Source: Octopus vulgaris | Lineage: Eukaryota | Reading direction: 5' to 3' | DNA length: 64,000 nt | Assembly (NCBI GenBank): GCA_951406725.2 | Contig: OX597828.1 | Span: 69,874,001 to 69,938,000 of the forward strand | Shown here: piece by piece, positions 32,666 to 55,514 of the stretch | How positions within the stretch are numbered: the stretch's first letter is position 1 | Layout: every line of letters begins with the position of its first letter | The notes under the pieces: model-generated | What the model was told of the DNA's origin: nothing | The model's database searches: none | What the model saw: only the letters and a program-made list of their open reading frames with translations | Translations under genes and position numbers: made by a program

Positions 32666-33138
32666 AATTCAAGGCGAATTAGGGGTTGTGAATCAACCCA
32701 ACTAAGGGATAGTATCTATCCAATATACTGCTGGTAATATACCCAATTATTACTACACAACTGTTGAGTATTGCGTGGCAATCACACTATTGAGCGTAGT
32801 AAATGAGCGAGGGTAAAAAGTGGTTTACCCTTAATTTATACGGCAAGAAGAAAATGGAGGGGATCCAGAGTTAGTATGCATCAACTGTTAGACATTACAT
32901 CATGTCTGTATATTGATTTTAAACAATTACGAGAATATATATATACATATGTAAAGATTGTGTTTTGCATACGTAAGTACCGGTAGTTTCTAGAATAGAG
33001 AAAGAAGAGCAGTTTCTTACAGCTGTTTCAGCCAAGAGGTCACGGTACCCCACATGTTATTTACATCTTTTCTGTGTACTGTAGTGATCGGTAGATAAAA
33101 TTAGGGTACTTTGGTGTGCCTCTACGCTTCATCAGGGT
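32666..33138 (-). mobile_element. Non-autonomous element between (TA)n tracts: HHR core with ~100-nt stem II (33017-33135) followed by a three-hairpin module
   Basis: CTGATGA-agc..agagg.cac..gtacc...ggtac.gtg.cctct..gct-GAAA-cagctg-TA; the 5' arm of stem I is absent. The downstream module is homologous to 49390-49580 and 55300-55490. Confidence 0.7.
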
Positions 33139-33869
33139 GTATATATATATATGTATACATAGATATGTACATATATATATATATATATATATATATATAT
33201 ATATATATATATATATATATATATATATATATATATATATATATATATGTATATAGTATTTTATAATTACGAGTATAATTATAATTAGGGTTCAGCAAAT
33301 TTTACCCTTTATTATTATTGATTATATATATATATATATCAACACCCCCACATATATATATCCATATACATATATGTATATAAATATATATATATATATA
33401 TACACACACACACACACACATATATATATATGTGTGTGTATGTATGTATGTATGTATGTATATGTACATACATTGAGAGAGGAGACTGAAACGTGCGACA
33501 GGTAAACACAGACGGGACGCGTCCTTGGTTTACACATTGCACTCCAATCTTCAGAGTGGTGCGACGCGGGGGATCGACCTCGCAATAGGCTAGCGTGCGA
33601 ATTACGAGAAACAATAAGACATAAAAAAATAAGAGAAAAAACAATGACACGCAGAAAACAGGTGTGGTGTGAAGCACTGAATACATTACCTGTTTTCTGT
33701 GTATGTATGTATGTAATCATGTATGTATGTATATGTGTGTATGTATGTATGTGTGTTTGTGTATGAATAGCTGCCTCATTTAATTATTTATATATATATA
33801 TATATATATATATATATATATATAAATAATTAAATACATACACAGAAAACAGGTAATGTATATATATAT

Positions 33870-34330
33870 ATAGACAAATGAGGAAATGTATACTGAATGT
33901 AAAAATAAACTGGAGACAAACAGAAGGTCCATAATTCTTCATCAGTTATCGACCAACGATACTTTTTCAGTTTCGCATCTTTAACGATAAGTTGAACGCT
34001 TCCCAATTGGCGGTGCCCGCAAGAAAGAGTTTTTTTGCGTAGAAATAGAGACAAGAGCAACCAAAACGAAAAAAAAAAAACAAGCAAAATGACACAGAGT
34101 GTGATTTAGGGCGGTGGACGAGGACAAACAGTCGAACAAAATACGGCCTTGGGGGCCAATAAGACGAGAATAGTGGGTAACGCTTATGAAATGTTTTGAG
34201 CGATGTAGAACGGAGAGAGAGAATTTGCGACAGGTCAGGTTAGGGACCAATCTAAGAAAGGAAGAAAAGGAGGAACTGGCCGCTGGTCACGTGACAGTAG
34301 CAGGCAGAAGAGAAGAACAGCAAGGAATAT
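33870..34330 (-). mobile_element. Non-autonomous pLTR-like element between (TA)n tracts
   Basis: Purine-skewed, contains tcatcag at ~33949 and shares a motif with 28586-29193. Confidence 0.45.
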
Positions 34331-34361
34331 ATATGTGCATATATGTATGTGTGTATATATT

Positions 34362-34708
34362 AGGGTAAACGGTAGAGACTCCTTTTCGTCATGAATGACC
34401 ATGGGATTGTATCTAAAAAGTTCACCTCCGAGGCACAAGTCTAGGCAATGATGCTTTTTATGGAAGGCCAGCAGTTGCCCATTGATACCAGCCTCCCCTC
34501 TCTACGCCACCGATGTTGCCCATGGGAAGGGCAAAGGTCGATACAGCTTGGCACCAGTGACGTCAAAACTCACCTCTACAGCTGAGGGAACTGGAGTAAC
34601 GAGGAATAAAGTGTCTTGTTCAAGAACACAACACACAACCCGGGCCGCGAATTGATCTCAATACCTCTTGATTATGAGCCCGATGTTCTAACCACTGAGC
34701 CGTGCGCC
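34362..34708 (-). mobile_element. SINE family R with tail type 3
   Basis: tRNA-like head at the right end; body matches 58775-59099. Confidence 0.8.
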
Positions 34709-34739
34709 TTCACACACACACACACACACATATATTCAC

Positions 34740-34966
34740 GTGATCGATATACATTGCTGGTTACAATGTGCTTTCGAATGATGACACCTCGCTGATTAGG
34801 CGAGGACAACATTTCTCTTGCCGTCGTAGGGGTCAGCCAGACAGGAGCAACGTGAAATGAAGTGTTTGGCTAAAGAACCCAACGAACCGCCTGGTCCTGG
34901 GCCGGGAATTGACCCAACAATGTAGCGATCGTGAGTGCAACGCATTAAGCACCTGGCCACGCGCCT
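34740..34966 (-). mobile_element. SINE family R with tail type 2, degenerate
   Basis: Minus-strand head ggcgcgtggccaggtgcttaatgcgttgcactcacgatc; tail similar to 5295-5410. Confidence 0.6.
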
Positions 34967-35703
34967 TCACACATACACACACACATAGCTGAAGCTAACA
35001 CAGAACTTTTGAATTTGAGGAATATTCAGCAACTTTGGCAGTCACAGCAAATTACGTGGATCTTGTTCTTCTGGGAATGATGTTCGTCTCGCCCCTATAT
35101 ACAATACATCGTGTTTTTAACACGCGTCCATGAAGAGGTTTTGTTTCAGTCAAAATCTACCGCATCATACCTTGCATATACGTTAAGTATGATACGCAGA
35201 AAGCTATTTTATTTTAATGCTGTTTGAATTGCGGACACCGAGTTTTATTCAGCGTGGCCGCTTTATGCAACATCAGTGAATATATTATTCACTCTTCCCT
35301 ATGTGTCAAGGGAGACATGTTTCGTAGCGACTACACGTTATTAATAAGGCTCAAGGAAGTCGACAAACGTCTGATGTTCTCGTGGCCTACTGTTGGCATG
35401 ATTTTTGCCTCGCTCTGTTGTTTATTGTGTTTGTAACACGACATGTCTACGAAAAGATTTCCTTTTTTTCCCGGGCAAAGACCACAGCATATATGTTGAT
35501 GCACTGTCGGCCATTCTGATTTCATACTGTTACAAGTGGGTGTACCGAGAATGAACTGGTTGTTTATAAACGTCTTCATTTAAAAACAGACACGGAGTCT
35601 GTTAACATAGCAACTTGAGTGACATATTAAGAAACCTTACAATGTTATATCATTACTAAAAATAGACAAGCATTTACATCAAGTTGCATTATTAACTAGA
35701 CGG

Positions 35704-35915
35704 AAGGCAGCGAGATGGCAGAATCATTACAACGCTGGGGAAAAGGCTTAGCAGCATTTTGTCGGTCTTTACGTTCTGAGTTCAAATTCCGCCGACGTCG
35801 ACTTTGCCTTTCATCCTTTCAGGATCGATAAGTTAAGTACCAGTGAAACACTAGTCACTCCCCCCAAAAAAAAAAAAAATTTCAGGCCTTGTGCCTATTG
35901 TAGAAAGGTTTATTA
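35704..35915 (+). mobile_element. SINE family M
   Basis: aaggcagcgagatggcagaatc...gtcgactttgcctttcatcc...aagtaccag. Confidence 0.75.
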
Positions 35916-53454: not shown

Positions 53455-53520
53455 TTTGATAACATTATGGGTTCCTATGATGGAGATGATATTTGCAAAT
53501 CAATCGGACTCTATATTCTA
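53455..53520 (+). pseudogene. Tiny RT relic of a second PLE clade (Naiad/Chlamys-like motif)
   Basis: FDNIMGSYDGDDICKSIGLYIL resembles the [22 protein letters not shown]-type motif recalled for these PLEs. Confidence 0.5.
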
Positions 53521-53671
53521 ATTTTATTTCTGTGTTTCAGCCCAGCAGAGGTCGACCGTAGCTGTGAATGCTTGCTACTGTTGATACTTTTTTACTTGTA
53601 GTTCATTCATTGTCCTGTGGCCTTTCCTGCTACTCCGTCGCACACCAGCAATAACTCTCCTAACTAAGACA

Positions 53672-54058
53672 CCTACGGCTGCTGCTGTGCTGTTGAGCGA
53701 ACGGTCTTCGTCCCAGAGCTCGCAAGATGGGAGAAGTCCGAAACGTGGTCCTTTGCTATTCGTAAGACCCGCAGAAGAGAAAGCAGATCAACCCCCGACA
53801 CCGAGAGCATCGACGGATGGATGAATGCGCATCCAGACTCAGGGGTTGCACAGGAAGTCAGGGACAAGAAACAGGAAGAAAGAGTGAGAGAAAGTTGGAG
53901 CGAAAGAGTACAAGAGAGGTCTCCCCCCCCCCGCCGGAGCCTCGTGGAGCTTTAGGTGTTTTCGCTCAATAAACACACACAACGCCCGGTCTGGGAATCG
54001 AAACTGCGATCCTTCGACCGCGAGTCCGCTGCCCTAACCACTGGGCTATTGCGCCTCC
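53672..54058 (-). mobile_element. tRNA-derived SINE with the same head/body as 12851-13030 but a different tail (type 4)
   Basis: The reverse complement of 53870-54058 matches 12851-13030; 53672-53865 is unrelated to 13035-13216. Confidence 0.8.
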
Positions 54059-54458
54059 TACTGCTGCTGCTTATGACGCACCACGTTCAACACCTGATGC
54101 TGTCTATCGTTACCACTCACAACAGTTGATGCAGGAATCCATCGATACTTTCCGCCACAACAATGGATTACTGCCAACGATACTTTTTCTCCGAATCTTT
54201 GGGTTATTTTCTATCCTATATTTGATAACGGGAAACTTACCTAAAATATCATAGAAGCATTGAACAACAATAGCTTGCTTTTTTCCTTATTTATTGGCAT
54301 CGCCTTACATATCTTATCCAACTTCTCACTCGAATTGCTTAAAGCTCTTAAAAATATTTATAGCAGTTTCTTAATTTTATGTAATGCGATTCATCATAAA
54401 AGAGTTACTGTTCAAAGAAGTCCCGTCAATATATTGAAATAATTAGAATTAAAGAATA

Positions 54459-54715
54459 TACGAAGGTGGGCTGAAAAGTTTAGTGGCCGATTATGAAGGA
54501 GGGACGTTGGAGCTGTAAAATCTTGCATGCATTAATTTCAATGCTTCTTATTAATCACTGCATTGTTTCTTTCCAGATAAACTGATTTCTGACCGTTCGA
54601 AGAAGCCTTCAAAAGTAACGCTTCTTTTGAAAATGAACAAAATTTGTCATCGTGCTTCTATCAAATACCTGCATAAAAATGCTTTCGTCCCCAACAATAT
54701 TCATATCGACATGAA
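54459..54715 (+). mobile_element. Mariner 5' fragment
   Basis: tacgaaggtgggctgaaaagt end; MNKICHRASIKYLHKNAFVPNNIHIDM resembles a transposase N-terminus. Confidence 0.55.
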
Positions 54716-54956
54716 CTTTCCTGTCTACCCTCATAGTAGATACTCCTTGGTCAAATTCTTCGATACCAATTTAGATTTAACTACTGGTAAATAGTTCTTT
54801 TATTGGTAGACCTAACGGGAAACTCACAGTGAGGTAACCAACAAGTATTGGTAAGGTACCGTAAATATGCGAGTACGAAATCCAATTTAAACCACAGATT
54901 CGACTCTGGGGTTGGTCCTTGCTGTGACGTAGGTATAAAATGTAAACACAAATGGC

Positions 54957-55055
54957 ATTTAAAATTTTCAACAGCTGTTTTGGTAGAATTTTATTCATGC
55001 ATTCATAGAAAATTGCGTCATTACATAACATCTACCATCAGGTAAAATTTTAAAA
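54957..55055 (-). ncRNA. Degenerate hammerhead with long stems I and II
   Basis: Minus strand tttaaaattttac-ctgatg-gtaga...tctacc-aaaa-cagctg-tt-gaaaattttaaa. The core is damaged (short CUGAUGA box, G12 lost). Confidence 0.45.
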
Positions 55056-55514
55056 CGGTAAAAGATTTTAAACAGGTGAGATATTTTAAAATCGATATTA
55101 TATATATATATATATATATATATATATATATATATATATATATATATAGATATAGATACATACACACACACACACACGTGTGTGTGTGTGTATCTGTTTA
55201 TGCAGTTATTGACTTATTTCATTCATTAATTTGTATCACTCACACATATGTTTGTAATCATTTAATAAATAGAGACAATCGAATGTTTACTGGCTGATGT
55301 TTGTCCTCTCCATTTTCTTATTTGCTGTATAAATCCCGGGTAAATTTCTAATTTACCCCCACCTATACCTAATACTCAATTGCAATATTACCATGCAATA
55401 GTAAGCACTTGGCTATAAACACTTATGTACACATCCAGTAGTATATTGGATATTTAATATCCCTTAGACGGTTTCTTAACCTCTAACTCATACAGAAATA
55501 TAAATACATATATA

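Follow-up and report, generated by a model that had tools for sequence, protein, structure and literature searches.

A constrained multi-hairpin module in Octopus vulgaris, probably the 3' terminus of a Penelope-like retroposon family that targets TA

Three copies of a hairpin module

Within a 64,000-nt window of the Octopus vulgaris genome (assembly GCA_951406725.2, contig OX597828.1, positions 69,874,001 to 69,938,000 of the forward strand; coordinates below are counted from the first letter of the window), we find three homologous copies of a module of about 190 nt made of successive hairpins. They lie at 32667-32860 on the minus strand (c33) and at 49390-49582 (c49) and 55305-55492 (c55) on the plus strand. 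A first-pass annotation had described three copies sharing one order of parts; that order is the same in c33, c49 and c55, and every part that it named is found where it had been placed. c33 and c55 are 69% identical across 171 nt (nhmmer, E 8e-21), and the module alignments of all three pairs score above 1000/1000 dinucleotide shuffles. A pattern combining a conserved block with hairpin 3, derived from the three copies themselves, has three matches in the window against none in 100 shuffles. Neither a profile hidden Markov model (nhmmer) nor a covariance model detects a fourth copy in the window: the covariance model gives its training copies 153-196 bits and the next match, on a microsatellite, 23 bits. 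Stops are present in all six frames of every copy, the longest stop-free frame having 66 codons, and we see no coding remnant in the module.

Together with the sequence alongside it, c33 extends over 32667..32934 (minus strand), which comprises the module and about 75 nt of upstream sequence, and its 3' end adjoins (TA)n at 32666. c49 (49336..49582, plus strand) is the most diverged copy and the shortest on its 5' side, with (TA)n(TG)n on both flanks. As for c55 (55192..55497, plus strand), its family reaches at least to 55192 and has its 3' end at about 55492, with TA-rich sequence next. The 5' starts of the three copies differ and their ends are alike, at TA-rich runs in 3/3.

Read from 5' to 3', the module consists of the CTCCATTTT block, a TATAAAT block (TTTAAAT in c49), hairpins 1 and 2, a CC(A/G)G(C/T)AGTATA block, and hairpins 3 and 4. 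The last of these had been overlooked: the aacc(c/t)ctaa block reported just before the TA tract is indeed there, but it does not stand alone and forms the 3' arm of a fourth hairpin, the TA-rich run beginning 10-15 nt past it. We take CTCCATTTT to be YY1-like and TATAAAT to be TATA-like, both labels being putative, and the two blocks would serve as promoter elements of a pseudo-long terminal repeat (pLTR).

In c33 (minus strand), the conserved CTCCATTTT block occupies 32851..32859 and TATAAAT 32840-32834, ahead of hairpin 1 (32811..32830; 7-8 bp, 6-nt loop); they are followed by the core of hairpin 2 (32770..32782; 5 bp), hairpin 3 (32707..32721; 5-6 bp) and hairpin 4 (32679..32705; 4 + 6 bp, AC-rich 3' arm). 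On the plus strand, c49 has hairpin 1 at 49425..49442, with G-C changed to A-U, hairpin 2 at 49472..49487 (6 bp, reached by two-sided changes or by one inserted pair), hairpin 3 at 49531..49544 and hairpin 4, with 2 mismatches, at 49546..49569. In c55, also on the plus strand, the CTCCATTTT and TATAAAT blocks span 55308..55334, hairpin 1 55338..55358, hairpin 2 55386..55400, the conserved block and hairpin 3 55435..55462, and hairpin 4 55464..55486 (5 + 4 bp, one bulge, AC-rich 3' arm). A fifth hairpin may form around the conserved CC(A/G)GTA block, at 49516-49534 (plus strand; 7 bp) in c49 and at 55426-55444 (plus strand) in c55; it is weaker in c33 and c55 than in c49.

A dispersed family with constrained stems

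Logan contigs matching c55 are present in 4/4 public DNA runs from three organisms, numbering 72, 550, 480 and 693 (at least 80% identity to the target 55192-55520, 329 nt). Summed contig depth, which is no copy number, has its maxima at 55302-55334, over the CTCCATTTT and TATAAAT blocks, and at 55434-55477, the conserved block and hairpin 3 having the highest depth. At the 5' edge, depth is about 30-fold below that at hairpin 3 in X2, X5 and X11, a gradient confounded by the 80% identity filter and by edge effects. Loose contig ends accumulate behind 55490-55502, where the consensus is AT/TA-rich and of low agreement, which argues for a shared 3' end inside varied TA flanks. Depth drops after 55466, with no TA loose ends there among those listed, and contigs that do not align upstream (loose ends before 55458) contain the arms of hairpin 3 with other loops. 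Given the many contigs and the shared 3' end followed by TA-rich sequence, the module is the end of an abundant, dispersed repeat family situated in TA microsatellites, not part of a host gene. A fixed 3' end with variable 5' starts would be the polarity expected of target-primed reverse transcription (TPRT).

Constraint on the stems is well supported. Among the 40 listed of 92 variants, we count 23 variable places within 55305-55492; they fall on 1 in 54 stem nt versus 7 in 20 loop or bulge nt (Fisher p 3e-4), and the sole stem variant repairs a mismatch in hairpin 2 of c55. The listed variants of c55 hairpin 4 are confined to its bulge and loop. Variants thus avoid the stems, in agreement with the earlier statement that loops diverge while stems stay. 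Between c33 and c55, identity is 34/36 in stems versus 94/151 elsewhere (p 9e-5). In a simulation of neutral decay, at least 17/18 pairs are retained in 1e-4 to 5e-4 of trials, a result that overstates the constraint because the stems were picked after the copies had been seen.

Two-sided covariation is modestly supported. The proposal that stems are kept by compensatory changes holds for 3/18 pairs between c33 and c49 and for 4/18 between c55 and c49, but for 0/18 between c33 and c55. In hairpin 2, the two-sided count varies with the register, the alternative being one inserted pair. Its stem is in place as described, except for an A.C mismatch in c55 that is private to this copy: at 55390, c55 has A, and the G found in 84-95% of the aligned depth restores the pair. 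Two-sided changes are thus few, restricted to comparisons with c49 and ambiguous in hairpin 2.

The perfect-stem content of c33 is reached by 0/1000 shuffles and that of c49, in base pairs, by 1/1000; c55 does not stand above its shuffles, 101/1000 of which reach its value. The folding z-scores of the three copies are -1.7, -3.5 and -2.9.

The hammerhead near c33 and other elements of the window

A Penelope-type minimal hammerhead ribozyme (HHR) core lies 5' of c33, at 33018..33135 on the minus strand, as recognised from its sequence, its fold and a by-eye comparison with the HHR table of PMC8557442. Its stem II is long and branched, its stem III is palindromic, and a TA tract replaces the 5' strand of stem I; this is a build of the kind reported for Penelope-like elements (PLEs) (PMC8557442; PMC4209133). 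The first-pass annotation had placed the 33-kb module 3' of an HHR. The core is there, but the stem I partner is absent and a TA-rich run (32935..32952, minus strand) intervenes, which might be internal or might have served a separate insertion as its target. The distance from the HHR GAAA to this run is about 80 nt, and a TA run follows 36-180 nt after four other HHR-like ends of the window, so the 33135-33018 piece could be a complete, separate end. The sequence upstream of c55 is collinear with the HHR-module stretch of c33, weakly (77/1000 shuffles reach the score), and past the TA run no homology between c55 and c33 is detected (943/1000). As the HHR lacks the 5' strand of stem I and lies behind a short TA run, its belonging to the same element as the module is unproven. 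No HHR was found near c49 or c55. With 1/3 copies close to an HHR, and that one incomplete and maybe a separate insertion in the TA run, the idea of a new ribozyme-associated motif is poorly supported. A permuted-monomer arrangement, in which the 3' end of c33 would supply the missing stem I strand, fails by eye.

Another minimal HHR, at 32473 (minus strand), lies downstream of c33 behind another TA run and resembles one at 48670 (minus strand); these two ends have similar downstream sequence and a TA tract about 105-110 nt away, and would belong to another PLE family. Around c33, the 9-mer CTCGTAATT has its only three sites in 64 kb, at 33608, 33273 and 32933 (minus strand), 335 and 340 nt apart, and no significant homology is seen in their flanks. 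A decayed tandem of about 337 nt, suggested by these sites, was not supported, 0/15 piece alignments being clearly above shuffles (best 8/300). A motif of about 20 nt recurs at 33704-33683, 33081-33061 and 32913-32892 (minus strand) and at 33840-33860 (plus strand); one copy lies in inverted orientation on the other side of the TA tract at 33790, an arrangement like that of the inverted 5'-truncated copies of PLEs, and two copies end with a 5'-splice-site-like GTAATGT.

The window also contains a TA-flanked element with reverse transcriptase (RT) and GIY-YIG domains, and several minimal HHR ends. The two domains are recognised at 25917-27859 (plus strand; RVT_1 E 1.7e-6, GIY-YIG E 2e-6), within a frameshifted PLE at 25917-28550 (plus strand) with RT, CX4CxxC linker, GIY-YIG and (TA)n flanks. 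In its 3' region are CCAAT boxes and, at 28346, a minimal HHR-like core. Nearby, a long imperfect palindrome with CTGATGA and GAAAC boxes lies between TA tracts at 25417-25600. Directly after c49 comes an inverted-repeat element (49645-49966), 86-89% related to 44888-45093. The stretches 55515-55900, 60682-61618 and 62860-63976 we take, from their motifs, to be mariner-like transposase remnants, one of which begins in the TA run right behind c55.

Origin of the module and comparison with known systems

The multi-hairpin module is real and constrained, and it forms the 3' end of a retroposon family that targets TA, probably a Penelope-like one. More specifically, it may well be, as we tentatively propose, the structured 3' end of a TA-targeting PLE, or of a non-coding derivative, that acts as a binding and initiation signal for RT. 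A PLE-type RT/GIY-YIG protein would nick (TA)n, the four-hairpin array would be bound by the RT as an RNA signal, and cDNA synthesis would start at or near the terminal AC-rich hairpin; c33, c49 and c55 would be 5'-truncated, decaying inserts from TPRT. It is by analogy with the PLEs compared below that we infer folding at the RNA level, binding by RT, a PLE as the driver and mobilisation by TPRT. The earlier suggestion of a structured 3' cis-element is borne out by the high copy number, the shared (TA)n 3' end, the differing 5' starts and the conservation of stems over loops; recognition by RT or endonuclease, which was part of that suggestion, is an inference.

Several observations weigh against a PLE origin or against a selected RNA fold. 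The 3' end of the window's own PLE (25917-28550) is without the module, as judged by nhmmer and the covariance model, and so are, in a comparison by eye, the published octopus and squid Naiad 3' ends that we inspected (Obim, Ovul, Omin, Esco and Adux). For the family, we saw neither an RT open reading frame (ORF) nor a pLTR duplication, and neither a head-to-tail joint nor a tail of 30-40 nt. The core stems are without G.U pairs, the antisense strand is the better folder in 2/3 copies, and the long-range helix that RNAalifold proposed was rejected, since the letters in the majority at 55326 (85-91%) and 55327 (51-76%) break it. Stem identity between c49 and c55 is 26/36 (p 0.25), not above background, and every two-sided covariation involves one copy, c49. 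Finally, the stems were defined post hoc from the copies, the variant test draws on the listed 40 of 92 variants, and the depth gradient is confounded as noted above. The three truncated copies in the window show no pLTR, partial tandem or inverted truncated copy, go-back joints are absent among the four contig joints listed, and the module could be linked to no PLE ORF, all three copies being short.

Structured 3' untranslated regions (UTRs) are standard in R2-type elements, and in the R2/R4-Dong long interspersed nuclear elements (LINEs) a structured 3' end of about 200-300 nt is read by the RT, which is similar to the module. It is possible, if somewhat doubtful, that the module represents such a 3' UTR from a non-LTR LINE (Dong/R4, Hero, CR1 or RTE) or the LINE-derived tail of a short interspersed nuclear element (SINE), its hairpins being the usual stringent signal for RT recognition; it would then be a matter of routine repeat annotation. 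The 3'-fixed, 5'-variable polarity suits any TPRT element, and in O. vulgaris LINEs and SINEs are reported as the commonest orders, many Dong-R4 copies being recent (PMC13282606). In contrast, R2/R4-Dong elements target ribosomal DNA or (TAA)n, the latter being the Dong target in most insects, molluscs and cnidarians according to PMC7998251, whereas the module copies end in (TA)n and have (TA)n/(TG)n flanks; the target does not support a Dong/R4 assignment. The copies have no evident poly(A) tail or repeat tail of their own, Pol III A/B boxes were not seen by eye in the module stretch, and the 3' UTR of octopus RTE is described as mainly microsatellite (PMC9115989). Nor does Rfam bring c33 or c55 a match at E<=10 beyond sub-threshold noise: 32000-33140 yields 23 matches at E<=10, none near the gathering threshold, and 55192-55510 yields 6, the best at E 0.69 and none at the gathering score. 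c49 was covered by the whole-window scan, through the listed 150 of its 261 matches.

A further reading, which we consider rather unlikely, keeps the PLE end but has the inverted repeats act as DNA, either as palindromic factor or endonuclease sites in a pLTR promoter or as quasi-palindromes that template switching keeps corrected, without selection for an RNA fold. All pairs in the core stems are Watson-Crick, most of the stem sequence does not vary, and the presumed TATA-like and YY1-like blocks lie just upstream. The Penelope promoter is reported to lie within the pLTR (PMC8557442), and the tail to be required for endonuclease recognition (PMC11167929). Yet hairpin 4 stays paired despite a shift in length and register between c33 and c55. 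Moreover, the spacers between stem arms differ among copies (6-7, 3-4 and 4-5 nt), a variation that fits hairpins more readily than it fits a rigid dimer site.

The end of a DNA transposon (Helitron/Helentron-type or miniature inverted-repeat element) with subterminal hairpins is highly improbable: TA targets are common among DNA transposons and the fixed end has a hairpin within a few bases of it, but the three copies share no CTRR terminus, have no terminal inverted repeats and differ in their 5' ends. In a comparison with consensus sequences by eye, twister, pistol and Helitron-end readings found no support. Just as improbable is a new catalytic RNA, self-cleaving or other, in place of the hammerhead or as its complement: Naiads are reported to be without canonical HHRs (PMC8557442) and conserved unpaired blocks are kept between the module helices, but we found neither a conserved pseudoknot nor a conserved multi-helix junction, variation is greatest in the loops, the long-range helix did not hold and an Rfam ribozyme match is absent.

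Returning to the structured PLE end, we compared the module with described systems. The module was not found described in our literature search; Repbase, Dfam and the Zenodo library of PMC13282606, which were outside its scope, may contain the family unnamed. Its pattern has 0 matches in viral contigs and prokaryote genomes, and 16 loci in metagenomes, all due to chance (best profile E 0.008, flanks without homology). A motif search of the Naiad and Hydra consensus files of PMC8557442, in which line breaks can hide matches, gave no match to the module. Animal non-LTR retrozymes resemble the module in being short, AT-rich, non-coding, PLE-related and dispersed (PMC7229834; bioRxiv 10.64898/2026.07.22.740005). 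They are, as reported, tandem units with a type I HHR each (PMC7229834), whereas the module occurs as single copies, without tandem and without an HHR in c49 or c55, and membership was rejected.

The closest likeness in insertion habit is with the endonuclease-containing (EN+) PLEs Naiad, Hydra and Neptune (Craig et al. 2021, PMC8557442). Their 3' ends, like the module, go with (TA)n insertion and 5' truncation, and very many are short; for Naiad and Hydra, Octopus families are included. A type I minimal HHR lies near the 3' end in all PLE clades but Naiad/Chlamys. Naiads, like the module, occur in Octopus, and they have no canonical HHR. The HHR of Hydra-1_oBim differs from that at 33135 and lies about 100 nt from the element end. 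The consulted text of PMC8557442 describes no conserved multi-hairpin 3' module of the kind seen in c33, c49 and c55.

As for initiation, the Poseidon PLE PAc offers the nearest parallel: its genomic 3' end is marked by an AC-rich stem-loop, in which its RT is reported to begin, within a required region of <=172 nt (Frangieh et al. 2024, PMC11167929). PAc differs from the module in that its region lies in the ORF start, immediately 3' to an HHR that is intact, with a two-start 'tail', whereas the module has no ORF, no intact HHR and no tail that we could see. It is tempting to speculate, although we think it unlikely, that the module represents a hammerhead-free cephalopod PLE lineage with a conserved four-hairpin RNA domain for template recognition and initiation by a telomerase-related RT, common to subfamilies that are about 30% diverged, as a natural, covarying counterpart of the RT-binding and template-boundary elements of telomerase RNA. 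PLE RTs are the sister group of telomerase, and one element has had its choice of RNA and start site examined in vitro (PMC11167929). With at least hundreds of copies, diverged subfamilies and constrained stems, the module would, as soon as its coding partner is found, offer a ready alignment for studies of covariation and for mutagenesis.

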